NCBI GenBank assembly: GCA_037446095.1
Contig: JBBIJG010000002.1
Span: 1 to 40,896 of the forward strand
Direction: 5' to 3'
Source of the DNA: Caldilineae bacterium
GTDB taxonomy: Bacteria > Chloroflexota > Anaerolineae > E26-bin7
DNA length: 40,896 nt
Below, piece after piece: positions 3,728-23,053 of this stretch; the first letter of the stretch is position 1, and each line of letters begins with the position of its first letter. Position numbers and translations under genes: made by a program. The notes beneath the pieces are model-generated. The model saw only the letters and a list, made by a program, of their open reading frames with translations. It had not been told where the DNA came from and made no database searches.

Positions 3728-6700
3728 TTAGCGTACCTCATACCCCCCATTTTGCCTGGCAAAGACGCGGGCTCCAATTCTCTGGCTCACCTGGAAGAGG
3801 GCCTGGTACACATAGGAGCCGATTTCTGCATCATCTAGCAACGCGGTCAGGCCTTCTACTGTCACCCGATCGTCACCCAGAGCACTTAAAGCTTCCACGA
3901 TCTTCAGGCGCACAGAACGATCTAGCTCCCGATCGGACAGGAGGGCTAAGAGCTTAGGGACTTTGGACCTGTCACCTAGAGAACGCATGGCTTCAGCGGC
4001 TTCTCTGCCGACAGGTATGGGAGTCGGGAGTCGAGGTGTGACGGTCTTCTCACCTATCGCCTCGGCCACACTCACCCGCACCGAAGAGTCTACCTTCTCA
4101 TCGGTCAAGAGGTCCAGCAACTCAGGGACCGTAGCCTCATCTTCCATAGCCCCCAGAGCGCTCAAAGCGTCAACGATCTTCCAGCGTATGGAGGGGTCTA
4201 TCTTCTCATTGGCCAGAAGGCGCAAGAGGGGAGGGACCACCGATTTATCGCCCAGATGGCCCAAAGCGGCAGCAACGGTGGCCCGCACATCGGGGTCTAT
4301 TTTCTGCTTGGACAGGATGGCCAGGAGTCGGGGGGCGATGGAGGAGTCGCCCAGAGCACCCAGAGCCTCGGCCACGGCAATCCGCACATTGTAGTCCACC
4401 TTCTCGTTGGGCAAAAGGCGCAGAAGCTGGGAGGTAACAGATTCGTCCTTTCGGCTTCTCCGACTTTCAGGGCAGACACCCAGAGTACCCAGGACCTCGG
4501 CCACACGCACGCGTACCCGATAGTCTATCTCCTCATCAGGAAGGAGGCGGAGAAGGGGAGGGATGAGGGATTCATTCTTTCGACGCCACCTTGGCTCGGG
4601 GCAGGGCTCAGGGCAAGGCTCAGGACAGGTGCCGAAGGCACCCAGGGCCTCGGCCACTGCCATACGCACCCGGTAATCTATTTCCTCATCAGGCAACAGG
4701 GTCAGGAGCTGGGGGAGCACCGATTCATCGCCCAGGGAGCTTAAGGCGGCAGCGACATTGATCCGTACAGCCAGGTCTATCCTTGGATTGGGCAGGAGAG
4801 TCACGAGCCCGGTCACCGTGGATTCGTCGCCCAGAGAAGCCAGGGCTGCGATAATCCACCGATGCACGGTCCGGTATTCCTCCTCTGTCCTTCCCCGACG
4901 GGGGGGAGCCATCACAAGGGACTGAAAGTAAGCGGCGACGGAAGGATCGCCTATCTCGGTCAGCACGCCGATGGCCCACCGTCGAAGAGGCAGGTGATAG
5001 GCTCCTTCGACCAGTTCTTGAAGCTGCTCAATGATGTTTCTCCGGAGTTCCGCATGTTTGAGGCGCGGTTGCCTGGCCAGACAGCGCCCGGCCAGCAGAA
5101 GGTGGCGGCGAAAGACATCGTCTTTTTGGCTCAGGAGGCTTTCCAAAAGAGGCGTGGCATCTTCCAGAATCCCGGCCAGAAACAGGGTTGTCCCTTCCCA
5201 CCAGGGGTCCGGTATGCCCTCCAGGACCAATTCAAGCCGACCTTTTTTGCTGATGGCTACCGCAGCAAAGTACTCCTGCCAGGTCAGGTGGGCGAAGCTG
5301 TACCACCTGGCCTGTTCCCTGAGCAACCCGTATTGGGCCCCGATCCTTTCCAGGATAGTGGGAACCCAGTCCGCCGGCAGGCCCGCTACGGAGCAATAGC
5401 TGGCTATGATCCCACTCAAGTCATCTTCAGGGAAGCAGGAGAGCCGTCGCAGGTGGAAATGCAGGGCTACCTCTTCCAACAGACCCTGTTGATGCTCGGC
5501 TGTGAAGCGAGAAATCCGCCTGCGACCCCGATGAGTTTCCCATTTTTCGAGCAACAACTCCATACCACGCCGGTAGAGCCCGGCCCGCCCCTCCGGCAAT
5601 TCTCCGTCCTGTTCAAAGACGAAAGCTGTGAGGGAGAGAAGCAAAGGGTTGGTGACCCAAGCCCGGACCTGGGGGTTTTGCAGGATGGCCCTCTGCAGTT
5701 CCAGGGCCTGAGCGGGGCCCCGCGGGGAGCGGGACGAACTGTCCCGGCCGAACCAGCCTGCGATGAAATGTTGGACCTCGTCTTGCTCCAACTTCAATAC
5801 TTCCAGGGTATGGAAGCCGGCGCTCAAGAGCCCTTTCCAGCCGGCCTGTCGTGCAGTGACCACGACAGGCACTTTGGGATAGCGGGTCGTCAGGACATTG
5901 ATCTGGCCGACCACGTAGCGATAGGTGGCCTCAGCTTCCTTAGGGGAGCCGACGCAGGTCTCATCCAGACCATCCAGGAGAAGGAGGACAGAGCCTTCTT
6001 CCAGGCGTTCTTCCAGATAGGAGCGCAGCGCGGGGGAGCGGCGGAGGGCATCCATCTCTCTGACGACAAAATCCAGAAGATCGGTCCGAGGAGTTTCAGT
6101 GCCCGTCGCTGAGCCCGGAGACGAAGCCTGAGGCTCAGATTGAAGGACCTCGGCCCCCCGCTCTGAGGCTCCGTCCTGAGGGGGCGCGACGCCTCGATGG
6201 AGCTCGTCGAAGCCTGAGCCCGGCGAAATCTCAGCCGGGCGGCCCGGCTCGAAGGGCGTGGGTCGGGCGGTTCGGCCTGCCGACCCCGGCAAGGCGCCCA
6301 ACCAGGTGGCAGCCAGGCGGTTCAGGGAGAGGAGGATAGGGAAATCCGGCAGGCCTGGCAGCTTGCCCTGGAGAGCCTGAAAAGCCAGGTGTCGGAGTAA
6401 GGTGGTCTTGCCGGCACCGGGCTCACCCAGCAAGGCCAGGCGGTGGAATCGGGCCAGAGCCTCCTGGGGGTACATGAGCTCATCGCCGGCCAGGGGGTTA
6501 ACCTCATCTCTCTCATAGGGGCCGGACCTCTCCCGAACCTTGAGAGGGATGTAGGACGTAGCCAGGTCAAAGGGTGTGGCCACATCCATGACCTTCAACT
6601 GGCTAAGCTGGGCCATAAGCTTGTGGCGGTAAGCCAGAGCCAGGGCTTCAGGCTGGATCTCGGCCTCTTTCTCTGGCCGCCTGGCCAGCCGATTCCTTAA

Positions 6701-6943
6701 ATAGCGCCTGGCGAAATAGCCTGTCAGGGTCAGGAAGAGCAGGCCAATCGCCCCGGCGGCAGCAAGCTGGCGATAACCTATCGGCAGGATGCCGAGGCCA
6801 GGGATAAAGGCTGGCTCTGGCATCTCCAAGATGGGCGTCATCAGAACGAGCAAACCGGCCAAAAGGACCAGGGCCAGAAGCAGAGCAATAACTTTGGTGT
6901 AATAAGAGGAACGTCTGGGGGATTTCAAAACAGTCTCCTCCAT
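3728..6943 (-). CDS. Membrane-anchored NACHT-family STAND NTPase with C-terminal HEAT/PBS-lyase-like repeats
   Basis: Walker A is LLGEPGAGKTTLL and Walker B is VLLLLDGLDE. Two hydrophobic helices lie near the N-terminus (VIALLLALVLLAGLLVLM, AAGAIGLLFLTLTGYF). There are at least 8 C-terminal repeats of the type LLxLLxDExxDxxVRxxxAEALGxLGD. The first ATG is at 6943; the track start at 7039 is TTG. Confidence 0.8.
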   Translation of the reverse strand: MEETVLKSPRRSSYYTKVIALLLALVLLAGLLVLMTPILEMPEPAFIPGLGILPIGYRQLAAAGAIGLLFLTLTGYFARRYLRNRLARRPEKEAEIQPEALALAYRHKLMAQLSQLKVMDVATPFDLATSYIPLKVRERSGPYERDEVNPLAGDELMYPQEALARFHRLALLGEPGAGKTTLLRHLAFQALQGKLPGLPDFPILLSLNRLAATWLGALPGSAGRTARPTPFEPGRPAEISPGSGFDELHRGVAPPQDGASERGAEVLQSEPQASSPGSATGTETPRTDLLDFVVREMDALRRSPALRSYLEERLEEGSVLLLLDGLDETCVGSPKEAEATYRYVVGQINVLTTRYPKVPVVVTARQAGWKGLLSAGFHTLEVLKLEQDEVQHFIAGWFGRDSSSRSPRGPAQALELQRAILQNPQVRAWVTNPLLLSLTAFVFEQDGELPEGRAGLYRRGMELLLEKWETHRGRRRISRFTAEHQQGLLEEVALHFHLRRLSCFPEDDLSGIIASYCSVAGLPADWVPTILERIGAQYGLLREQARWYSFAHLTWQEYFAAVAISKKGRLELVLEGIPDPWWEGTTLFLAGILEDATPLLESLLSQKDDVFRRHLLLAGRCLARQPRLKHAELRRNIIEQLQELVEGAYHLPLRRWAIGVLTEIGDPSVAAYFQSLVMAPPRRGRTEEEYRTVHRWIIAALASLGDESTVTGLVTLLPNPRIDLAVRINVAAALSSLGDESVLPQLLTLLPDEEIDYRVRMAVAEALGAFGTCPEPCPEPCPEPRWRRKNESLIPPLLRLLPDEEIDYRVRVRVAEVLGTLGVCPESRRSRKDESVTSQLLRLLPNEKVDYNVRIAVAEALGALGDSSIAPRLLAILSKQKIDPDVRATVAAALGHLGDKSVVPPLLRLLANEKIDPSIRWKIVDALSALGAMEDEATVPELLDLLTDEKVDSSVRVSVAEAIGEKTVTPRLPTPIPVGREAAEAMRSLGDRSKVPKLLALLSDRELDRSVRLKIVEALSALGDDRVTVEGLTALLDDAEIGSYVYQALFQVSQRIGARVFARQNGGYEVR
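4593..4628. repeat. 3 x 12-nt tandem repeat encoding (CPEP)3 inside the NACHT-HEAT gene
   Basis: GGCTCGGGGCAG / GGCTCAGGGCAA / GGCTCAGGACAG on the plus strand. On the coding (minus) strand this reads CPEPCPEPCPEP between two HEAT repeats. Confidence 0.8.
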
Positions 6944-7098
6944 GTATTGGTACCGTAACCATTCGGGCTCTTTGCTATGAATTACACGAATTGCACAAAT
7001 TCTGTGCCCATTGTATCTCACTTTTATGAACGTTGTCAATAGGATTTATGTCCTGTCATTTCCTTTGCTCCAGGGGCCCCCACTGGAAAACCCCTCCA

Positions 7099-7215: not shown

Positions 7216-7288
7216 GGACAAGAAAGCCATGGGCTGTTATACTAATACATGTTTTGGCGGGGCAAAACGAATGGACCAAGGAGGGAAG

Positions 7289-8533
7289 ATGTCTTATGCA
7301 GACTGGGTGCACAAAGAATTGAAGAGGTTAAGCCAGTCCCTGGGCTTCCGGTATATCCCGAAGGAGGAGCTGATGAACCGTCTGGCCAGGCTCAGAAAAG
7401 CCCTGGAGAGAGCAGGCATGGAGGCTTTTCTGGTGGTTCAGAAAATGGACTGTTACTACCTGTCCGGGACTACCCAGGACGGTCTCCTCTTTGTGCCTCT
7501 GGAGGGGAAGCCGCTGCTCATGGTCAAACGGGAAGTGGAGCGGGCCAGGGTGGAATCGCCCCTGGAAGAGGTGGTAGGGTTCCAGTCAGCGCGTGAGCTC
7601 CCTTCCCTGATAGGCAACCATTGGGGCAGGCTTCCCCAGACCCTGGGACTCGAACTGGACGTCCTCCCCGTAAAGGATTACTTCAGGTACCAGGACCTCT
7701 TTCCAGGCGCCAGGCTCATGGACGCCTCCCCGCTCATCCGGGACCTCCGCAAGATCAAATCTCCCTTCGAGATCGAGCTTATGAGGGTGGCGGGGGACAT
7801 AGGCAGGAGAGTGTACCAGGAAGCCAGGGAGATCCTCAAAGCAGGGATGACCGAGATCGAGTTCGGGGGGCTCCTGGAAGCGGTGGCCAAAAGATACGGC
7901 CATGAGGGGCTTCTCAGGGTCCGCTCCCTCAACTACGAGGCGTACACCTGGCATGTGTTGAGCGGCCCCAGCGGGGGCATTGTGAGCCAGTCGGATTCAC
8001 CAATGGGCGGATTGGGGCTTTCGCCGGCCTTTCCCGTGGGAGCCAGCCGCAGGGTCATGAGAGCCCACGAACCCATTCTGGTAGATTTTGGGATCTGCTA
8101 CCACGGCTACCAGGTGGACCAGACCCGCGTGTTCTCTCTGGGAGAGATGGACAGGAAATTCACCGACGCCTACCGTGCCTGCCGGGAGATCCACGATGCT
8201 GTCCTGGCAGAGACCTGGCCGGGAGCGGATTGCGAAGCCATCTTCCAGATGACTCTGCGGCTGGCAGAGAGGCTGGGTTACCGTGAGAGTTACCTGGGCC
8301 CATCGGGGCTCCAGACCCGTTTCATCGCTCACGGCATTGGCCTGGAGCTCAACGAACTTCCCTTCCTGGCCCAGGGCCATTCCTATCCCCTGGAAGAAGG
8401 GATGACTTTCGCCGTGGAGCCCAAAATCGTCTTCCCCGGAGAGGGCTCGGTAGGGTTGGAGGACACGGTGTTGGTCACCCGCGACGGTTACGAGATCCTT
8501 ACCCCCCTGGAGCAGGACATCTTCCAGGTATGA
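7289..8533 (+). CDS. M24-family Xaa-Pro aminopeptidase/dipeptidase (creatinase-like N-domain + pita-bread domain)
   Basis: GGAGGG sits upstream of the ATG at 7289. Metal-ligand context is typical of M24B: VDFGICYHGYQVDQTR, HGIGLELNE, FAVEPK, GLEDTVLVT. Confidence 0.9.
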   Translation: MSYADWVHKELKRLSQSLGFRYIPKEELMNRLARLRKALERAGMEAFLVVQKMDCYYLSGTTQDGLLFVPLEGKPLLMVKREVERARVESPLEEVVGFQSARELPSLIGNHWGRLPQTLGLELDVLPVKDYFRYQDLFPGARLMDASPLIRDLRKIKSPFEIELMRVAGDIGRRVYQEAREILKAGMTEIEFGGLLEAVAKRYGHEGLLRVRSLNYEAYTWHVLSGPSGGIVSQSDSPMGGLGLSPAFPVGASRRVMRAHEPILVDFGICYHGYQVDQTRVFSLGEMDRKFTDAYRACREIHDAVLAETWPGADCEAIFQMTLRLAERLGYRESYLGPSGLQTRFIAHGIGLELNELPFLAQGHSYPLEEGMTFAVEPKIVFPGEGSVGLEDTVLVTRDGYEILTPLEQDIFQV

Positions 8534-8576: not shown

Positions 8577-10490
8577 TTAATGCTGGCGGGGAGGCTTGGT
8601 GTATGTCTTCGCGAAACCGGTGCGGGCCCTGGAAAGGGCTGCTTCGTCTTTCCACAGGCCACGCAACAGCAATCGTCGCTCCGGGCGCGGTGTACGGTGC
8701 AGGACGTAGTAAAAATTGAGGCGTTTCCCAGACACCTGGTATTCCCGCCGCAGGGCCTCGATCTCACCCTGGAGCTGCGCTTCGATCTCGTCTGCGCTCG
8801 CCGGCTCAAACACGGTCCGATTCACCCGGCAAAAGGGGCCCTTTTCACAACGGCACTGTACGACGATGCCATCCTCTGCCAATTCCCAGGTGCGCTGCGC
8901 CAGCTCCCGCCCGCCCGCAGCGATGACGAAAGCCTCTATGACCGGCCCGGTAGCGTGGGTGTACACCTCGATTCTCTGGCCGGTGGCAGGCAGGGTGCGT
9001 TGTGCTCTAACCGTCTGGCGCCCGGCCGGTGGGGTAGGAGGCTTGGGCTTCTTTTCGGCCTTTTTCTCTACCTCGGGCGCTTTTGGTTCGGGACGGGGTT
9101 CAGGTAGCGGTGCGGGAGGAACTTCGGCTTTGGGAACGAGGCGGGCCGGTTCGCCCTCGGCGGCGTGGCACAGGCCCACGTGTTCGCGGCAGGTGCCCCG
9201 GCCACAGGTTGGGCAGCGGTTCAGGCTGCTGGCGCATACCGGCTGCTCACACACCACACAGGTTTTGATCTGGTCAGCACACAAACCACAGTAGACCCGC
9301 CTGCAATCCACGCATTGGGGCGACAGGCACTCCTCGTGGGCCAGATGGCCTCCGGTGCACAGGAACAGGCGATAAGAGGCATGGCCGCAGACATCGCAGG
9401 CCAGCGGCTCGATGCGGTGCAGCAGGGGGTTCCACACCATGGTCCGGGTGACCATAGCCGTGCGGTTCTCGATGTTCATGGGCAACACCAGGCGAGGCTG
9501 GACGATGACCAACAGGTTGATCAGAGCCAGTTCGACGCGCAGCCGATATTTGGCCTCCGCGTCGGCCAGCTTGGCCTCCCGTTCCGCCTTGATAGCGAGC
9601 AGCTTGTCCTGGAGGGCGGGACGTCGGTCATCGTCAGCGCGTTCGAGGCGGCGTTGCAGATCGCGCTCCATATCATTGTAGTACTGCTCCAGCCGGGCGC
9701 GGTCCAGTTCCAGGAAACGGGCTGCCCGTCGTTGCAGGCTATCCAGCGGCTCAGCCAGCTCTTCCAGCGCGGCGCGTTGGGCCCGTTCGAGCAACCCCTC
9801 CAACGCCTGGTGTGACAGCGGGTTGGCTGGGCTCTGCGGCAGAGCCGCGGGACCCGGCGAAGGGGGTTCTGGGTTGGGCAGCCAGAGGGGGGGCATCACC
9901 GGCAGATGCTCGAAGGCGGGGGTCGTTTCCAGGGCCGTCAGGTGCTCGATCTCGGCCAGCTCTTTCACCGGATAGCCGCCCTGGGCATCCATCAGCACCG
10001 ACAAAAGTTGCTCCCGCTTCTCATCGGTGATCAGCGCGGCCTTGAAATTGAAGCGCACGTAGTGGCCGAGGACGGGGCTTTCGGACGAGCCCTTTTGTTC
10101 CACCAGGCGAGCATTGGGGAAAGACAAGGCGCGGCGGGCCAGGTCGGCCAGGCCGCGCTTGTCCAGTCGCACGGCATTGGCATAGAGGCGGGTACAGGCC
10201 GGCACCTGACGGGCCATTTCGATCAGGTTTTCGACAAGAGGGTGGCCATAGCTCAGGTACGTGACCTCTGCTTCTTCCGCGCCGGGTGGCTCCTTTTCCG
10301 GAGCGGGGCGGAGAGCCGACAGGAGTTCCAGCGAGGTGTCGTCGAAGGCGAAGCGCTGGTAGGCAGACACCCCCAGGCGGGCTGCTAGGGCATCGGGCAA
10401 GAGCACCTCATAGACCCCATAAGCTGGGGGCTCGACGATGGCGCCTGCTTCCTGGCAATAGTGCAATACAAAGTCTGCTAACTCGTCCAT
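8577..10490 (-). CDS. Uncharacterised 637-aa protein: N-domain, ~100-aa coiled coil, 15-Cys multi-zinc-ribbon cluster, Pro/Lys-rich linker, C-terminal domain
   Basis: Long ORF starting 5 nt after the SNF2 stop codon. ATG start (MDELADF). Cys cluster at aa 365-441 (CDVC..C..C..CVDC..CGLC..CVVC..C..CPTC..C..C). I recognise no family. Confidence 0.75.
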   Translation of the reverse strand: MDELADFVLHYCQEAGAIVEPPAYGVYEVLLPDALAARLGVSAYQRFAFDDTSLELLSALRPAPEKEPPGAEEAEVTYLSYGHPLVENLIEMARQVPACTRLYANAVRLDKRGLADLARRALSFPNARLVEQKGSSESPVLGHYVRFNFKAALITDEKREQLLSVLMDAQGGYPVKELAEIEHLTALETTPAFEHLPVMPPLWLPNPEPPSPGPAALPQSPANPLSHQALEGLLERAQRAALEELAEPLDSLQRRAARFLELDRARLEQYYNDMERDLQRRLERADDDRRPALQDKLLAIKAEREAKLADAEAKYRLRVELALINLLVIVQPRLVLPMNIENRTAMVTRTMVWNPLLHRIEPLACDVCGHASYRLFLCTGGHLAHEECLSPQCVDCRRVYCGLCADQIKTCVVCEQPVCASSLNRCPTCGRGTCREHVGLCHAAEGEPARLVPKAEVPPAPLPEPRPEPKAPEVEKKAEKKPKPPTPPAGRQTVRAQRTLPATGQRIEVYTHATGPVIEAFVIAAGGRELAQRTWELAEDGIVVQCRCEKGPFCRVNRTVFEPASADEIEAQLQGEIEALRREYQVSGKRLNFYYVLHRTPRPERRLLLRGLWKDEAALSRARTGFAKTYTKPPRQH

Positions 10491-10495
10491 GCGTC

Positions 10496-12325
10496 CTACT
10501 CTGCGGCAAAGTCCTCTCCAAAGAGGGCTTCATCGTACTCCTGGGTACGCTGGTAAGCCTGGCGCGCCTGCACCAGAGCTTCGCCCAATTGCTCAAAGCC
10601 ACGGACCACTTCGTCGGAGGTGCGAGCCCGCGCCCACACCTCCATCACCAGGTCCTCAAAGTCCCGCTCGTCGGCCAGATGCCCCAGGATCATGCCGGTC
10701 TCTCCAATGACCAGCTCAAACATGTTCAGTTTGCGGTCGAGCAGGTCCAGGATATAGTCCTCGATGGTGCCTTCGGCTGACAGGTTAAAGATGTCCACCT
10801 CGCGCGCCTGGCCAATACGGTGAATGCGGCCCACCCGTTGTTCGATGCGCATCGGATTCCAGGGCAGGTCAAAGTTGATCATGGTGCGGCAGAATTGCAG
10901 GTTGCGTCCTTCGCCAGCGGCTTCGGTGGAGAGGAGGACGGGCGCGCTCTGCTCAAAGCGGCGGATGGCCTCGTCTTTCTGAGCGGTGGACAGGCCGCCG
11001 TGATAGAGCACAAAGTCTACCCCCAGGGCCCGCAAGCGCTCAGCCAGCCGTTCCAGGGTGGCGTTGAAATGGGTGAAGATGATGACCTTCCCGGAGGATG
11101 GGGTATCAACCCGGCCTACCATGGGCAGCAGGAGCTTTTCCAGAGCATCGGCCTTGGCCCACGATTCGATCTGGTTGGCGCGGTCGGCCATGGCCAGCAG
11201 TTGGGCCTGGTAGGGTTTCATCTCCCTCCGCTCGGCCAGCTTTTGCAGGGTGGGAGCAGCAGCCCAAGGGCTGCTGCCGATCTCGCGCTGGATGGTCTGC
11301 AAAGTAAACTTTTGCACCGCCGTGAGCTCGTTGCCTTCTTCTTCAGCCCCATCACCGGACTCCCTGCCTGAGGCCCGGAGTTGCTCTCGCACGAAGGTGC
11401 TGACATCGTCGTACAGGGCCTGTTCGTCTGGGCTGAGCTTCAGGCGGATGGTGTGGGCGTGGCGAGGGGGCAGAGAGATACTCACCTGACTACGCGAGTG
11501 GCGCACCATCACGTCGGCCAGCAGTTCCCGCAGCCGGCCGCGGTTCTTAGGCAGACGTGGGTCGCCCTGTACCACAAATTGCTGTCGAAATTGGCGCGGC
11601 GTCTTGAGCTGGCCTGGCTTTAGGATGGTGATGAGATTATACAGTTCGTCCAGGTCGTTTTGTACCGGTGTGGCGGTCAGCAAAAGGATGTACTTCTTCT
11701 GCAAGGCGTTGACAAACTTCCATGACACGCTGGCGCGGTTCTTCAGGTGGTGGGCTTCGTCCACGATGATGAGGTCATAGACGATCTGGGTGATCTCCCG
11801 GCGGTGTTCGGGGCGGCGGGCAGTAGCCAGCGAGGCGACGACATGGGGGAAGGTCGCCCAGGCCCGTGGGCCGAGGGCGCGGAATTCCGGGTCGGAACTG
11901 GTGACAAACTCGGTGAGGCGAAACTTGTAGGCCAGTTCCTCGCGCCACTGCTCGACGAGAGCTGGTGGGGTGAGAATGAGCACCCGGCTGACCAGGCGGC
12001 GCAGGAGGTACTCCTTCAGCACCAGGCTGGCCTCGATGGTCTTACCCAGGCCGACCTCATCACACAGCAGGCCACGGCCCCGGAAGCGGCGCAGCGCCGT
12101 CTGCGCCGTTTTCACCTGGTAGCCGAAGGGTGCAAAATCGAGGGTATCCAGACAGATCAGCTCGTCGAAGCCAGCGACGAGTAACAGACGCTCCGCCTGA
12201 AGCTGAAGCTGATACAGGCCCGGCCCAGTCCAATCTCCGTTGATGAATGCCTCGAGGACAGCTTCGGCGCCGGGCAGCAGACGCACCTCGTAAGTTTCCT
12301 GTAACGGACGATTCTTCTCGCTCAT
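10496..12325 (-). CDS. SNF2/RapA-like superfamily-2 ATPase (minimal core, ~610 aa)
   Basis: Motif I is DEVGLGKT, motif II is DEAHHLKN, motif VI is QRVGRIHRIGQ; helicase-C region contains LLSTEAAGEGRNLQ. The ATG at 12325 lies 13 nt after the upstream stop; the track start at 12346 is TTG. Confidence 0.9.
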   Translation of the reverse strand: MSEKNRPLQETYEVRLLPGAEAVLEAFINGDWTGPGLYQLQLQAERLLLVAGFDELICLDTLDFAPFGYQVKTAQTALRRFRGRGLLCDEVGLGKTIEASLVLKEYLLRRLVSRVLILTPPALVEQWREELAYKFRLTEFVTSSDPEFRALGPRAWATFPHVVASLATARRPEHRREITQIVYDLIIVDEAHHLKNRASVSWKFVNALQKKYILLLTATPVQNDLDELYNLITILKPGQLKTPRQFRQQFVVQGDPRLPKNRGRLRELLADVMVRHSRSQVSISLPPRHAHTIRLKLSPDEQALYDDVSTFVREQLRASGRESGDGAEEEGNELTAVQKFTLQTIQREIGSSPWAAAPTLQKLAERREMKPYQAQLLAMADRANQIESWAKADALEKLLLPMVGRVDTPSSGKVIIFTHFNATLERLAERLRALGVDFVLYHGGLSTAQKDEAIRRFEQSAPVLLSTEAAGEGRNLQFCRTMINFDLPWNPMRIEQRVGRIHRIGQAREVDIFNLSAEGTIEDYILDLLDRKLNMFELVIGETGMILGHLADERDFEDLVMEVWARARTSDEVVRGFEQLGEALVQARQAYQRTQEYDEALFGEDFAAE

Positions 12326-12338
12326 GGCTGCCCTTATG

Positions 12339-14528
<2,190 letters not shown>

Positions 14529-14647
14529 AAAATCGCTCCGCAAAGCCTTCAAAGGGCCAGGGCCTCTTCCAGAGCCTATGTCCAGAACCGCGCCCGCCCA
14601 TCTTGAAGCAGCAGCACTGCGCCATGGGTCAGCCTCCCGACGAAGCG

Positions 14648-15706
14648 TTAGCCATGCTCGCTGCTCCCGCCCCCCGCGGACGGGCTCAGGTCACCGCCCT
14701 GTTCCACCTTGGGGCAACCGGCCAGGGAGCCCGTCATCACCAGGTTGGCAGCCACATCCAGCAGCGGGCAGGGCCCCTCTTCCCAACCCGTCACGGCCTG
14801 ACAGGCCAGTTCCGCCCGCTCTTCACAGTGCCGGCATCGGTTATGGACCAGGAGCATGGCCCGGCTCAGGCGGGAGTAAAGGGTGGCGGCATCCTGTTCA
14901 TCCAGCTCCGCATCCAGGCCCAGGGCCTCTACTGTCCCCGTCTGGGCAAGGAAATGGGCCAGTTGCCCCTGGGCGAAAAGGGCCTCCGGGCCCGACACCT
15001 CATCATCGGGCAAAGCCTCCCAACGCTCCATCAACTCGGTGTAGAGAGCCGGTTCCATCTCCGCCAACAGGCCATGAGGAAGTCCCGCCGCCCGTTGTGG
15101 CCAACGCATCAGGCTCAGACCCACCAACAGGCTGAACCCTCGCACGGCGAGCGGCAACTCAGGTGCGGCCAGTTCATCGCAAAAAGGCGCTGCCGGACAG
15201 GTCTCACAACCCAATTCTTCGGAAGGCATCAGCCGCATGTGACGTTGCAAATTGGCCCAGGCTGCGACCGCTTCTCGAGCCGATTCGGACAGCTCCTGGC
15301 CCAGCCGCAAGATAGCCAGAGAGATCTCCAGGAGATGCCGGTCTCTCCTCCGGCGACCTTTCCGCAGTCCAAAGCCATCCAGCCAGTCCTCCGGCTCTCC
15401 GTTTAGTCCGAGGTAGTCTTCCAACAAGTCTTCCAGATAATCGAGGGGTGACTCCAGCACGGCGATCGGCAGGGCCTCCCACTCCACCAGGTCCAGGAGT
15501 TCCTCACCAATCTCGATGACCTTATCCAGGTCCGTCAGGAGGTCCAACTGCTTGATCAACGGCAACCAGTCATCGGGCTCCAGGGCGATCCAATCATCGG
15601 GGGTGGTTCCGTCCAGACCACCCACCTCATCGCTGAGAAAGAACAAAGCGGCCATTTCCCTGGCCCACATCTTAATTGAGATGTCCCTGTGACTCCACAT
15701 ATCCAC
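14648..15706 (-). CDS. Uncharacterised, strongly acidic 350-aa protein with CxxC pairs (first gene of the SNF2/Clp-like operon)
   Basis: Long ORF on the same strand and downstream of a good promoter. Start is GTG 15706 or ATG 15700, after GGGGGAGGAGGA. Asp/Glu/Leu-rich N-half, basic patch RKGRRRRDRH, Cys motifs CETCPAAPFC and CRHCEERAELAC. I recognise no family. Confidence 0.7.
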   Translation of the reverse strand: MDMWSHRDISIKMWAREMAALFFLSDEVGGLDGTTPDDWIALEPDDWLPLIKQLDLLTDLDKVIEIGEELLDLVEWEALPIAVLESPLDYLEDLLEDYLGLNGEPEDWLDGFGLRKGRRRRDRHLLEISLAILRLGQELSESAREAVAAWANLQRHMRLMPSEELGCETCPAAPFCDELAAPELPLAVRGFSLLVGLSLMRWPQRAAGLPHGLLAEMEPALYTELMERWEALPDDEVSGPEALFAQGQLAHFLAQTGTVEALGLDAELDEQDAATLYSRLSRAMLLVHNRCRHCEERAELACQAVTGWEEGPCPLLDVAANLVMTGSLAGCPKVEQGGDLSPSAGGGSSEHG

Positions 15707-15776
15707 AACATCCTCCTCCCCCGTATCAAGCCCGACCGACTTTGGCTCTCGGGTTCAGGGCCCAACGAGCACCTCT

Positions 15777-15805
15777 ATTATACCAGCACTTGGCGATATA
15801 AGCAA
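15777..15805 (-). promoter_or_regulatory. Sigma70-like promoter for the minus-strand SNF2/Clp-like operon
   Basis: Minus strand reads TTGCTT-17 nt-TATAAT with TG at the extended -10 position (GCTGGTATAAT), about 70 nt upstream of the first start codon. Confidence 0.5.
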
Positions 15806-15971: not shown

Positions 15972-18209
15972 ATGAAGCACTGGATTCACGTCAACCAACC
16001 TCTGGCACCATGGCTGATTTGTGCTGCCCTATTATTCGGTTCTCTGTTGCTTTTCACAACCGCTGTCGCCGCCCCTCCACCAGATGGCCCCAAGCCTGGC
16101 GAAGTCAGCCTGGGCGCAGCAGACGATGGCCGCCAGATCGAGCTCGGCGAAGGCCAGGTTCTGGTCATCAGCCTGGAAAGCAATCCATCCACCGGCTATG
16201 GTTGGGAGGTAGAGGAAATAGACAAGGCGATCCTGCGCCAGATGGGGAAGACGGAGTTCGAAGCAGAATCGCATCTGCTGGGTGCTCCAGCTAAGCAGAT
16301 TCTGCGCTTCGAAGCAGTGGCCGCGGGCCAGACCCCTCTCCGGTTGGTCTACCGTCGCCCCTGGGAGAAGGGGGTAGCACCGGCCAGGACCTTCTCTCTG
16401 CAAGTGAAAAGTGCAGGGTCCTTTACCCGCACCAAGGATCCCCTTCCTACTCCTACAGCCGAACCCCTTGTTCAGACTTTGGAAGTTTCGACTGACCAAC
16501 TTGGCCTCCCTACATCTTTTAACTGGTGCGACCTGGGGGGATGCACCCCGGTCAAGGATCAGGCCAGTTGTGGGAGTTGCTGGGCCTTCAGCACGGTCGG
16601 CGCCCTGGAATCCAACATCCGAATCCGGGATGGGGGAGTTGTTAAGGACCTTGCGGAACAGTACCTTGTTTCATGCAACGAAGACGGCTGGGGCTGTAGT
16701 GGTGGGTGGTGGGCCCACGACTATCATTGGTGGAAGAAAGTGTCAGGTGAGACCGACGCCGGGGCAGTTTATGAGGCCGATTTCCCCTATGTGGCCAGGG
16801 ATGACCCTTGCAACCCCCCGCACGCCCATCACGAGAAAATCGTTTCCTGGGCCTTCGTGGGACCTGAGCACGGCGTTCCCTCCGTGGCGGCTATCAAGCA
16901 AGCCATCTACGACCATGGGCCCGTTTCCGCCGCCGTCTGTGTAGGCTCCGCCTTTCACAACTACACAGGCGGCATATTCGAAACCAATGAATGCAGCGAG
17001 GTGAATCACGCCGTGGTCCTGGTCGGCTGGGACGACAATCAGGGAATATGGTACCTCAGGAATTCCTGGGGGACAGGTTGGGGTGAAAGCGGCTATATGC
17101 GTATCAAATACGGGACCTCCAACGTGGGATACTCCGCCAATTACATTGTTTACAATGGCGGCGGCTGCCAGGATGCCTACGAAGCCGATGACACTTACAC
17201 AACCGCTAAAACGATCATTGTGAACGGAGCAGCGCAAACCCACAACTTCCACGTCGCTGGTGACGTGGACTGGGCCAAGGTCGCGGTGTCAGCCGGGAGT
17301 GCCTACACCATCACCACCTCGAATTTGGGGGCCAGCAGCGACACCGTCCTGGCCCTGTATGACGCCAACGGCACCACAAAGCTCGAAGAGAACGACGACT
17401 GCAGTCCGGGCAACCCGGCCTCGTGCATCAACAATTATACCGCTACCATCACCGGCACCTACTACATCTCAGTGAGCCATTCCACTGCCCAGGGTGGTTG
17501 CACAGGATACGGCTACAATCTGGCCGTCACCAGCAATAGTAGCGGTAAGATCGCGGAAATCTTCTTGCCCCTTATTATGAAGGGCAGCACCTGTAGAGAC
17601 ACCCAGGTCGTGCAGAACAATGGGTTCGAGAGCGGCAGGACCATCTGGGTGCAATCGAGCGGTCCGTACGACATCATCGGGCCTAGCTCGCAGGGCTATT
17701 ATCCTCACAGCGGCTCCTGGAGCGCCTGGTTTGGGGGATACAATAACGCCGATGACCGGCTCTACCAGACGATCAACATCCCAGCCGGCATTTCCTCTGC
17801 CAGACTAATTTTCTATCTCTACGTAGAATCAGAAGATGACCCTGATACCCCTTACGACTACTTCCACGCAGAATTGCAAAATGCCTCGGGCGGGACCCTG
17901 GAGAGCTTTCTCTGGGCAGACAATACCATGAGCAGCAGCTACTGGTGGAAAGGCACAATGGAGTGGAGGGATTTCAGCGCCCACGCCGGTCAGACGCGCC
18001 GCCTTTTCTTCCAGGGAACGACCGACGATTACCTGATCACCAACTTTTTCGTGGACGACGTCACCCTCTGGGCCTACTGTGGTGGATTGCCCGCCGGTAC
18101 CCAAACTATGGGCCCGGGTGGATGGACCTGGGAGAAGATAGAAACACCCCCTGGCTATACGCCAGTCCCTCACAGCGAGCAGATCCTGAGAAAGGGCAAA
18201 GGTGAATAA
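15972..18209 (+). CDS. Secreted multidomain papain-family (C1A) cysteine protease: signal peptide, chagasin-like I42 inhibitor domain, C1 catalytic domain, pre-peptidase C-terminal (PPC) domain, jelly-roll-like C-terminal domain
   Basis: AAGGAG RBS. Signal-like N-terminus. I42 motifs NPSTGYGW and YRRPWE. C1 triad contexts CGSCWAFS, VNHAVVLVGWD, NSWGTGWGESGY. PPC-like segment AYEADDTYTTAKTI..GDVDWAKV..LALYDANG. C-terminal NNGFESG..W domain. Confidence 0.85.
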   Translation: MKHWIHVNQPLAPWLICAALLFGSLLLFTTAVAAPPPDGPKPGEVSLGAADDGRQIELGEGQVLVISLESNPSTGYGWEVEEIDKAILRQMGKTEFEAESHLLGAPAKQILRFEAVAAGQTPLRLVYRRPWEKGVAPARTFSLQVKSAGSFTRTKDPLPTPTAEPLVQTLEVSTDQLGLPTSFNWCDLGGCTPVKDQASCGSCWAFSTVGALESNIRIRDGGVVKDLAEQYLVSCNEDGWGCSGGWWAHDYHWWKKVSGETDAGAVYEADFPYVARDDPCNPPHAHHEKIVSWAFVGPEHGVPSVAAIKQAIYDHGPVSAAVCVGSAFHNYTGGIFETNECSEVNHAVVLVGWDDNQGIWYLRNSWGTGWGESGYMRIKYGTSNVGYSANYIVYNGGGCQDAYEADDTYTTAKTIIVNGAAQTHNFHVAGDVDWAKVAVSAGSAYTITTSNLGASSDTVLALYDANGTTKLEENDDCSPGNPASCINNYTATITGTYYISVSHSTAQGGCTGYGYNLAVTSNSSGKIAEIFLPLIMKGSTCRDTQVVQNNGFESGRTIWVQSSGPYDIIGPSSQGYYPHSGSWSAWFGGYNNADDRLYQTINIPAGISSARLIFYLYVESEDDPDTPYDYFHAELQNASGGTLESFLWADNTMSSSYWWKGTMEWRDFSAHAGQTRRLFFQGTTDDYLITNFFVDDVTLWAYCGGLPAGTQTMGPGGWTWEKIETPPGYTPVPHSEQILRKGKGE

Positions 18210-21392: not shown

Positions 21393-22202
21393 TACTACCA
21401 ACCCCTGGGGCGAGATGATACCGAGCTCCGGGACATGATGGAACAGATCGCCCTGGAGTTCCCCTGCTACGGCTATCGTCGCATCACAGCCGAACTGCGC
21501 CGGCGGGGGCACGTCGCAAACCACAAACGGGTGCTGCGCATCATGCGCCAAGAGACCCTTTTGGTACAGGTGAAACGCTACGTGCGCACTAACTTCAGCC
21601 GGCATGGGCTGGAACAGTATCCGAATCTGGTCAGGGACCTGGAGCCGGAAGGGCCTGATCACATTTGGTGCGGAGATATCATCTACATCCGCCTGCGTGC
21701 GGAGTCCCTGTACCTGGCAGTGCTGATGGACATCTTCACCCGCGCCATCCGCGGTTGGTATCTGGGCCGCGACCTGACGGAGGAGTTGGTGCGCACAGCC
21801 CTGGAAAGAGCCCTGGCCGCTCATCCCGCCCCGCGTATCCATCATTCCGCTCAAGGGGTCCAGTACGCCGCTCACGGTTATGTGGCCCTCCTGGAGGCCC
21901 ACGGCACACAGATCAGCATGGCCGCCGTCGGGCGCCCGATGGAGAATGCCTATGCCGAACGGCTCATCCGCACCCTGAAAGAAGAGGAGGTGTATCTGAA
22001 CGACTAAGAAGACTACGAAGATGCGTATCGGCGCATTGGCCGCTTTCTGGACGATGTCTACATGACCAAGCGTGTGCACTCAGCGTTGGGCTACTTGACG
22101 CCCGCCGAGTTCGAGGCGCTTCACGAAGGCAGTTGCTTGTTAATGTGCTATGCTGTCGTGCGCACTTTGAAGTTCAGAAAAATCCCTATACCTGCCAAGT
22201 AG
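21393..22202 (+). pseudogene. IS3 orfB (DDE/rve transposase) remnant with an in-frame TAA at 22005
   Basis: YYQPLGRDDTELRDMMEQIALEFPCYGYRRITAELRRRGHVANHKRVLRIM...WCGDIIYI...HSAQGVQYAA...ENAYAERLIRTLKEEEVYLND-stop-EDYEDAYRRIGRFLDDVYMTKRVHSALGYLTPAEFEA. The orfA/orfB junction, including any slippery site, is deleted (IEELE joined directly to YYQP). Confidence 0.75.
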
Positions 22203-22264
22203 CCCGGCCTGCACTTTTACACAAGATTTGACAAACTACCCATGCCTTTAGAAAGGTAAATATT

Positions 22265-22906
22265 ATGAGAAAAAGTGAAATAATAGTCTTGGGGATAACC
22301 CTGTTTTCCTTCATCGTTGGTATCTATTTTTATTTTTATCCCCAGATACCAGAGAAAATGGCTTCGCATTGGAATGCCCAAGGGCAAGTAGATGGTTATA
22401 TGTCAAAGTTCTGGGGATTATTTTTACTACCTCTTATCCTTGCTGGACTTGCTTTACTTTTTGTTGCCATCCCAAGAATGGATCCATTGAAAGCAAACAT
22501 CGAAGAATTTAGAAAATATTATGATGGGTTTATCATCTTGTTTTTAATATTCATGCTTTCCATTTACTTTCAGGTAATCCTATGGAATGTTGGAATTAAA
22601 ATTAGCCCTAATATAATACTCCCTATCGAGCTTGGACTTCTATTTTTCTACATTGGCACCCTTTGTGAAAATGCAAAAAGGAACTGGTTTATCGGGATTA
22701 GAACACCCTGGACATTGAGCAATGAAAGAGTGTGGGAGAAGACTCACAAAATTGGTGGAAAGTTGTTTAAAATTGCTGGGATTGTTGCTTTTGTTGGGAT
22801 ATTCTTCCAGAGTTATGCATTATTTTTCATCCTTGTTCCGGTGATTTTAGTGGCCATTTATACCATTGTTTATTCATACTTTGAATATCAAAAGGAGACA
22901 AAATGA
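22265..22906 (+). CDS. sdpI: SdpI/YhfL-family membrane protein (DUF1648 + SdpI domains), AT-rich foreign gene
   Basis: Motifs PEKMASHWNAQGQVDGYMSKFWG and NWFIGIRTPWTLSNERVWEKTHK, with 6 hydrophobic helices. Codon usage and base composition are strikingly AT-rich compared with the flanks. Confidence 0.8.
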   Translation: MRKSEIIVLGITLFSFIVGIYFYFYPQIPEKMASHWNAQGQVDGYMSKFWGLFLLPLILAGLALLFVAIPRMDPLKANIEEFRKYYDGFIILFLIFMLSIYFQVILWNVGIKISPNIILPIELGLLFFYIGTLCENAKRNWFIGIRTPWTLSNERVWEKTHKIGGKLFKIAGIVAFVGIFFQSYALFFILVPVILVAIYTIVYSYFEYQKETK

Positions 22907-23053
22907 TAGCGGTGCGAATGACGCACTTATAGAAAAAGCCTCATCCAATTTCATTTTTGGATTTTGGTGGGTTGGTTACTTACGCGACGCCACGAGTTCG
23001 CCCAAGCCTCAAGCGCATAAAAAGGCACAGGCTCACCCGCGCAACGCCCACAG

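Follow-up and report, generated by a model that had tools for sequence, protein, structure and literature searches.

Do four closely packed genes of a Caldilineae bacterium (Chloroflexota; Anaerolineae) encode one molecular machine, or are they neighbours with separate histories? The question is raised by a minus-strand array in the first 40,896 nucleotides (nt) of contig JBBIJG010000002.1 (GenBank assembly GCA_037446095.1), a stretch that we analyzed as a whole and refer to as the window. In this array, genes for an acidic 352-amino acid (aa) protein, a Clp-like unfoldase, a Snf2 ATPase, and a Cys-rich 637-aa protein follow one another. The original prediction, made from the letters alone, had joined the 4 genes into one coupled nucleoprotein-remodelling machine and had considered that it could be a new defence module or, alternatively, a RapA-like complex with its own disaggregase. 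With a probability of roughly 70%, we conclude instead that 3 evolutionarily independent units are packed head-to-tail, and that only the Snf2 gene (10496–12325, minus strand, 609 aa) and the gene for the 637-aa protein (8577–10490, minus strand), hereafter the partner, form a system, a two-subunit translocase for which a RapA-like housekeeping role is likeliest.

The evidence that carries this conclusion comes from the genomic company of the partner. More than 540 homologues of the 637-aa protein were found at 50% to 80% identity, none of them named, and the few with a taxonomy belong to the Anaerolineae or the Chloroflexota. When a single genome was scanned for each species, 33 loci emerged, every one of them in a Chloroflexota metagenome-assembled genome (Anaerolineae, Thermoflexales, Ardenticatenales, and Caldilineaceae). 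The window proteins were then searched by tblastn over the partner loci, 41 of which, roughly 30 of them non-redundant, include upstream sequence. In every one of these 41 Chloroflexota loci, the partner gene is directly preceded by a Snf2 gene on the same strand. Diverged partner homologues also have one constant neighbour, a Snf2 gene of approximately 605 to 625 aa directly upstream, and no other neighbour is constant. The distance from the Snf2 stop codon to the partner start is mostly −8 to +100 nt, with a 4-nt ATGA overlap in about a dozen loci; direct sequence reading gave 5 nt between the Snf2 stop and the ATG of the 637-aa gene in the window. Across Chloroflexota orders, identity to the window proteins is 59% to 87% for Snf2 and 39% to 74% for the partner, and the 2 proteins co-diverge, their identities co-varying from locus to locus (r = 0.98, n = 25 loci, the points not being independent).

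The pairing extends beyond the loci with a taxonomy. Metagenomes were scanned with a hand-built degenerate DNA motif drawn from the partner family alone, which returned 55 taxonomically unassigned loci with a GC content of 0.40 to 0.72, and a partner homologue was present in 55/55. A Snf2 gene was found in 43 of them, in 42 cases immediately upstream and co-oriented. Of the 12 loci lacking Snf2, 11 have less than 250 nt of upstream sequence, so that Snf2 is present in 43 of the 44 metagenome loci with room for it, and the overall pairing is 84 of 85 loci with room. The genuine exception (L050) has a partner gene without Snf2 upstream; its gene order might be reversed (partner, then Snf2), and the contig ends there. 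The pairing of the 2 genes is thus obligate in all but one of the loci with room, and the motor and its Cys-rich partner are a real, conserved, translationally coupled unit.

The motor of this unit is reduced to its catalytic core. Pfam detected SNF2-rel_dom (E = 8.7e-41) and Helicase_C (E = 7.2e-25) in the 609-aa protein and no other domain, and only approximately 90 residues precede motif I; the protein is a minimal Snf2 in the sense of approximately 550 to 620 aa and a helicase core only. A motif check found motif I (GLGKT, residue 92), motif II (DEAH, 189), motif III (TATP, 217), and motif VI (QRVGRIHRIGQ, 496) intact, as had first been read for I, II, and VI; the first reading of the D2 ring of the Clp-like protein was borne out as well.

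The partner is built of several parts, which we placed on an AlphaFold2 model computed from 100 homologues (mean predicted local distance difference test score, pLDDT, of 87.7). The N-terminal module (aa 1–355; 9426–10490, minus strand), with pLDDT mostly above 90, is laid out in the model as an alpha/beta domain (aa 1–205), a long helical hairpin (aa 227–314), and a long basic beta-hairpin (aa 318–354); it resembles YqhG, as described below, and is the likely Snf2-docking part. It is followed by a zinc-ribbon array (aa 360–445; 9156–9413, minus strand) that stands out as invariant columns in the homologue alignment. Its 15 Cys are invariant and 4 His are invariant or nearly so, which would suffice for the approximately 4 to 5 zinc sites predicted. 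These 15 Cys fall in residues 365–441, five in CxxC pairs. A disordered basic linker rich in Pro, Glu, and Lys (aa 446–500; 8991–9155, minus strand; pLDDT below 50, isoelectric point [pI] 10.1) differs in length and sequence among homologues. The C-terminal domain (aa 505–637; 8577–8978 including the stop codon, minus strand) is a lineage-specific module with a CxCx5C motif; it is basic (pI 9.4), and its pLDDT is 91 to 98 nearly throughout and approximately 70 at the last few residues. The 15-Cys cluster and PEPK-rich linker had already been recognized in the original prediction.

None of these parts led directly to a named family. The 637-aa protein had no match in Pfam, NCBIfam, or PADLOC, and its profile retrieved only a chance-level FYVE-RING match among PDB sequences (E = 0.67), while the zinc-ribbon array gave only weak FYVE/B-box-like zinc-finger matches. 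Foldseek searches with the model gave no significant match: the best PDB hit had E = 0.2, although RapA structures are in this database, and the best hit among the viral structures of BFVD (E = 3.5e-3) concerned short zinc-rich stretches of giant-virus proteins. A SWIM finger (PF04434) was not detected in the partner at E values up to 5, and the CxCx5C motif of the C-terminal domain has no following His, unlike the SWIM pattern CxCxnCxH. Within the 637-aa gene, ARAGORN called an antisense tRNA-Ala(cgc) (9149–9240, plus strand), which we rejected for its length of 92 nt and its lack of Rfam support. An Rfam gathering scan found no RNA family window-wide, and the GC-rich coding sequence has almost certainly given rise to a spurious call.

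A wider view of the partner family was obtained with a full HMMER search of 1.84 billion representatives, which yielded 1322 clusters and included many proteins of approximately 350 to 380 aa that match profile positions 1–380 only. When the alignment of the window partner family (A2) was compared by hhalign with an alignment of 40 members of this short family (A4), the probability was 100 (E = 5e-70) over residues 1–417, the first CxxC ribbon included. The short family retains this first zinc ribbon only and has no counterpart of the partner C-terminal domain. One short form (P0411, 379 aa) begins 30 nt after the gene for a 779-aa Snf2 protein, whereas scanning metagenomes with the single protein P0412 confirmed no locus of this family. 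The 2 subunits also occur as a natural fusion of 958 aa, found on two independent Logan contigs (P0407 and P0477): residues 5–360 of P0407 match the window partner (25% identity, E = 5e-34), and residues 381–958 match the entire window Snf2 (48% identity). In the fusion the partner N-module comes first and Snf2 second, opposite to the usual gene order. Four metagenome loci with a GC content of 0.40 to 0.51 (L078, L081, L086, and L088) encode another long form of the partner (620–647 aa). It consists of the N-module, a multi-CxxC zinc array, and a Lys-rich linker that leads to a C-terminal domain of helical, TPR-like build, and each of these genes directly follows a Snf2 gene. Because the TPR-like domain takes the place of the basic domain in these loci, the C-terminal part of the partner behaves as an interchangeable module, and the architecture of the family is modular.

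The short family also provided a link to a Bacillus protein. The Pfam family PF11079 ("Bacterial protein YqhG of unknown function") was presumably built on the Bacillus protein, with which its profile length of 258 accords. It was matched co-linearly by 10 of the 40 A4 members, by the P0407 fusion, and by the long form in L081, with a best E value of 2.3e-7; the matches that were inspected individually scored 13.9 to 24.9 bits, against a gathering score of 25 bits. The approximately 390 N-terminal residues of the partner are thus probably homologous to YqhG by way of the A4 family. In B. subtilis, yqhG and yqhH adjoin (PMC6123443), and YqhH has been described as a poorly characterised Swi2/Snf2 "HepA/RapA" protein approximately 30% identical to E. 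coli HepA (PMC7385302). We found no paper in the literature searched that ties YqhG to its Snf2 neighbour. The E. coli proteins called YqhG and YqhH were rejected as relatives, the shared names being a collision (a DUF3828 protein and a lipoprotein).

These observations suggest how the pair may work. The 609-aa Snf2 protein would supply the ATPase motor alone, and the partner would supply the accessory domains that RapA carries in cis. In RapA such domains regulate the motor, the N-terminal domain being autoinhibitory and RNA polymerase relieving the inhibition (PMC8501970). The N-module of the partner, comprising the alpha/beta domain, the helical hairpin, the beta-hairpin, and the first zinc ribbon, would dock on the motor and probably gate it. 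Nucleic acid or a target protein may be contacted by the zinc array together with the basic linker and C-terminal domain, and the last of these, being lineage-specific, may select the target. As a housekeeping function, the pair would then remodel protein-DNA complexes, its likeliest role being to clear or recycle RNA polymerase that has stalled or terminated transcription, or other stalled complexes. RapA/HepA and the Bacillus yqhH ("hepA")-yqhG pair are the analogues from which we infer this role. RapA is indeed the best solved-structure relative of the Snf2 core by sequence (E = 3e-41, PDB). The RapA-like alternative in the original prediction survives as the closest functional analogy for the Snf2 part.

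Several points weigh against this account. The RapA analogy would be drawn from the shared ATPase core and from nothing else: the window Snf2 scores 202 bits against the curated RapA model NF003426 (cut-off 576), and a Pfam scan of the protein found neither RapA_C nor the RapA N-terminal domain. The homology with YqhG is transitive, since a direct profile search gave no PF11079 match for the 637-aa family itself and most of the YqhG matches inspected one by one lie below the gathering score. Moreover, the probable co-transcription of the pair with the Clp-like gene in this genome could be incidental or could mark a young functional link.

A serious alternative, if a somewhat unlikely one, is that the 2 proteins form a Snf2 motor with another job, such as DNA repair or recombination, nucleoid-protein remodelling, or, as with the pilus-regulating Snf2 helicases, gene-specific regulation, with the C-terminal domain of the partner setting the target. 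The swapping of this domain by lineage (basic and beta-rich here, helical and TPR-like in L078, L081, L086, and L088, and none in the short forms) is consistent with this possibility, as are the missing RapA-specific domains and a weak NCBIfam match of the window Snf2 to a pilus-regulating Snf2 model. In B. thuringiensis, yqhH has been implicated in UV resistance through the resequencing of mutants (PMC10054049), which also fits. However, nothing points directly to any one target, RapA remains the top solved-structure relative by sequence, and the Bacillus literature treats YqhH as HepA/RapA (PMC7385302).

Far less probable is that the Snf2 pair, by itself or together with neighbouring genes, defends against phages or plasmids as a new module akin to the Snf2 helicases of DISARM, BREX, Dpd, and Zorya. 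What recommends this idea is that the top profile scores of the window Snf2 are to defence helicases (BrxHI, 246 bits in PADLOC; DrmD, 236–252 bits), that the partner is an unassigned protein rich in zinc ribbons, and that a NACHT-HEAT STAND protein is encoded 1.5 kb beyond the array. However, the helicase matches span the generic ATPase core only, and the window Snf2 stays under the curated cut-offs for RapA, DrmD, DpdE, and ZorD, far so for the 2 DrmD models (252 bits against 610, and 236 bits against 950). No methyltransferase, PLD, PglZ, DUF1998, or nuclease partner was found among the window ORFs scanned, and no PglZ or methylase in these ORFs or the related loci. The window neighbours (M24 peptidase, Clp-like protein, C1 peptidase, and NACHT-HEAT protein) are not the DrmA/DrmB set of DISARM. 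On contigs with diverged homologues, the neighbours of the pair are ordinary chromosomal genes that differ by lineage (ftsY, a release-factor gene, rpoC, moaC, ketoacyl synthase, RNase III, smc, proS, MFS transporters, and M24 peptidase), so that the context is one of housekeeping genes and neither mobile nor a defence island. The pair is co-inherited, and the identity of Snf2 across Chloroflexota orders makes it too conserved for a typical defence gene. Defence is unlikely because of this high conservation and correlated divergence, the housekeeping neighbours, the missing defence partners, the lack of a PADLOC match for the partner, and the lack of partner relatives in viral contigs in the partner scan. 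The original prediction was right that the gene content is unlike DISARM, BREX, Druantia, or Zorya; its suggestion of a new defence module did not gain support.

Two observations with a defence flavour deserve separate mention. Genes for an SLFN/AlbA_2-HATPase protein, a KaiC-like ATPase, and an integrase (L001/L002, 1645–3782) lie approximately 4 kb upstream of one Snf2-partner pair; this group may be a small mobile or defence islet, and it is not conserved at other loci. In the window itself, the gene at 3728–7039 (minus strand) encodes a STAND NTPase of 1103 aa that combines a NACHT domain with a low-complexity insertion rich in Pro and Ser and a long C-terminal array of HEAT/PBS-lyase repeats. 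It has a PADLOC match to HEAT-ARM_XIII (5.8e-13) and could be a defence-type sensor.

The next unit of the array is the gene for the 729-aa Clp-like protein (12339–14528, minus strand), whose ATG start is confirmed by a 90%-identical orthologue in L045. The protein has a Clp_N repeat and a two-ring layout. Its D2 ring, aligned with ClpB at E = 1e-100 or better, retains all catalytic motifs (GPTGVGKT, VVLFDEAEKAH, and GARPLRR). The D1 ring is degenerate (Walker A GPSGAGKR and Walker B ILFIPDIH), and it is so family-wide: Walker A reads GxxGxGK-R in about 90 of 120 homologues, and Walker B reads ILFIP[DN]IH where it could be matched. From these motifs, the protein would be an Hsp100 with a pseudo-ATPase D1 ring. 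It has no M-domain coiled coil, the ClpB alignment jumping from ClpB residue 397 to 520, and no ClpP-docking loop, the D2 alignment to ClpC being approximately 11 residues shorter at the position of the loop. Against the curated ClpB model it scored 516 bits (cut-off 1232). The family is conserved in Anaerolineae at 65% to 90% identity, with proteins of approximately 732 to 745 aa that are annotated as ClpC. In the closest relative, L045, the Clp-like protein is 90% and the 352-aa protein 87% identical to those of the window; the order there is peptidase (minus strand), 350-aa protein (plus strand), a 72-aa ORF, Clp-like protein (plus strand), and a convergent holin-like gene, with no Snf2 pair after them. 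An orthologue at 71% identity adjoins mraZ and the dcw cluster, and another at 68% adjoins a PPDK-like gene and an MFS transporter gene, both without Snf2. Conversely, none of the other 41 Snf2-partner loci showed a Clp-like homologue by tblastn within a distance of 10 kb. The Clp-like gene is therefore a neighbour outside the conserved module, a conserved Anaerolineae paralogue found in varied housekeeping contexts.

The 352-aa gene (14648–15706, minus strand, in our listing of open reading frames [ORFs]; the database gene call starts from an ATG at 15700 and gives 350 aa) belongs to a third unit. Its product is strongly acidic (pI 4.35) with two CxxC pairs, as described at the outset, and had no match in Pfam, NCBIfam, or PADLOC. 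The model is all-helical (pLDDT 78), and Foldseek found nothing better than E = 2 and no PDB match. In agreement with the original prediction, neither this protein nor the 637-aa protein has an assigned family or a relative of solved structure. The 352-aa family has 87 members. In L040, L042, and L045, as in the window, the gene is paired with a divergent gene for a Peptidase_C1/Inhibitor_I42 (chagasin-like) protein; the window copy (15972–18209, plus strand) encodes a secreted papain-like peptidase with the Pfam domains Peptidase_C1, Inhibitor_I42, and PPC. A homologue at 43% identity precedes alpha-2-macroglobulin genes (L041), and an alpha-2-macroglobulin gene is also near in L045. Such neighbours suggest that the protein is connected with proteases or protease inhibitors and not with DNA. 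Only one Snf2-partner locus (L040) has a 352-aa homologue, 5 kb off and beyond the peptidase gene. The 352-aa gene is thus tied to the divergent peptidase gene and not to Snf2.

The compact layout that had suggested a single machine was itself confirmed. The ORF listing and direct reading of the junctions gave 5 consecutive minus-strand ORFs in the order 352-aa, micro-ORF, Clp-like, Snf2, and 637-aa. Direct reading placed 22 nt between the 352-aa stop and the ATG of the micro-ORF and 13 nt between the Clp-like stop and the Snf2 ATG. The micro-ORF (42 aa; 14497–14625, minus strand) overlaps the Clp-like ATG. It is probably not a gene because it has no conserved counterpart, even in L045. In this relative, the region between the 352-aa and Clp-like genes spans approximately 690 nt and holds the unrelated 72-aa ORF, and only the last approximately 80 nt before the Clp-like ATG are partly conserved with the window; this stretch may include a leader or promoter proper to the Clp-like gene. 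The array is bounded by a convergent M24 peptidase gene (7229–8533, plus strand; Pfam Peptidase_M24 and Creatinase_N), a neighbour that is retained in L005/L006. Upstream of the 352-aa gene, the promoter-like site TTGCTT-17-TATAAT with a TGn extended −10 (15777–15805, minus strand) is present as claimed, and it is a plausible candidate promoter as read from the sequence. Its −35 hexamer matches the consensus at only 3/6 positions, which is why the consensus scan did not list it. In the same scan, no terminator-like site turned up on this strand between the genes of the array. Given the 13-nt Clp-Snf2 spacer, the Snf2 pair is probably co-transcribed with the Clp-like gene here. Elsewhere in the window, GC content falls to 0.40 at 22001–23000, against about 0.60 in the rest, and coincides with a gene for an SdpI/DUF1648 membrane protein (22265–22906, plus strand), which this local drop marks as a possible recent acquisition.

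That all 4 genes encode one nucleoprotein-remodelling machine, in which an unfoldase and a DNA translocase are joined by zinc-ribbon adaptors, is the least credible of the explanations: the tight same-strand packing behind a single promoter-like site, the short Clp-Snf2 spacer without a terminator-like site, and the atypical Clp-like protein (dead D1, no M-domain, no ClpP loop) all fit it, but the Clp-like gene is missing from the other Snf2-partner loci, the 352-aa gene tracks the C1 peptidase and occurs in a single such locus, L045 carries both genes with no Snf2 pair behind them, and remoter Clp-like orthologues adjoin mraZ/dcw or PPDK/MFS genes. The synteny comparison had been set beforehand as a check able to refute the coupled machine, and it found no conserved synteny of the Clp-like and 352-aa genes with the Snf2 pair. 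Of the one coupled machine, the Snf2/637-aa pair is therefore real and conserved, and the Clp-like and 352-aa genes are not part of it. Because these 2 genes have other contexts without Snf2, the arrangement in the window is a lineage-specific juxtaposition.

A bolder picture builds on the two-subunit translocase, and we offer it tentatively, holding it to be rather doubtful as a whole. The pair would be a widespread remodeller, spread over genomes with a GC content of 0.40 to 0.72 and mechanistically distinct from RapA, in which a partner whose fold has no counterpart in the PDB or the viral structure library gates a bare motor and, by swappable C-terminal modules, picks the target. The target-choosing module would be the zinc-ribbon array with the basic domain in Chloroflexota, and a TPR-like domain or nothing elsewhere. 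In this one lineage the pair lies behind, and is probably co-transcribed with, a D1-dead unfoldase, which would be a possible nascent coupling.

Bacterial Snf2 ATPases beyond RapA and the defence systems are almost unstudied, and through the pairing described here 2 "hypothetical" genes become a defined, testable two-subunit machine. The same reasoning provides a hypothesis for yqhG/yqhH of the genetically tractable B. subtilis, namely that regulation and targeting fall to the partner subunit. The "unfoldase plus translocase" operon is dismissed as a false lead.

Compared with known systems, the Clp-like neighbour shares with ClpB and ClpC the Clp_N repeat, the two-ring layout, and a canonical D2 ring, and differs from them in its degenerate D1 and in lacking the M-domain and the ClpP-docking loop. 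With DrmD, BrxHI, DpdE, and ZorD, the window Snf2 has the ATPase core in common; those proteins, however, are 850 to 1200 aa long with extra domains, and they are found with methyltransferase, PglZ, PLD, or nuclease partners in variable islands. E. coli RapA is, like the window Snf2, encoded by a bacterial, chromosomal, non-defence gene, and its in-cis accessory domains regulate the motor, which is the role proposed for the window partner. RapA is, however, a single chain of 968 aa with Tudor-like N-terminal domains and RapA_C, and the window Snf2 has neither. The closest resemblance is to YqhH/YqhG of B. subtilis: in both cases a minimal Snf2 ATPase without accessory domains is encoded beside a small partner protein, relatives of the N-module of the window partner match PF11079 recurrently and co-linearly, and both pairs are chromosomal and uncharacterised. 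Compared through the Pfam profile and literature descriptions, the window partner is much longer than YqhG (637 aa against a 258-position profile), and it adds the 15-Cys zinc-ribbon array, the basic disordered linker, and a C-terminal domain of 130 aa. This essentially unstudied pair thus probably extends the YqhH/YqhG type with zinc ribbons and a C-terminal domain.

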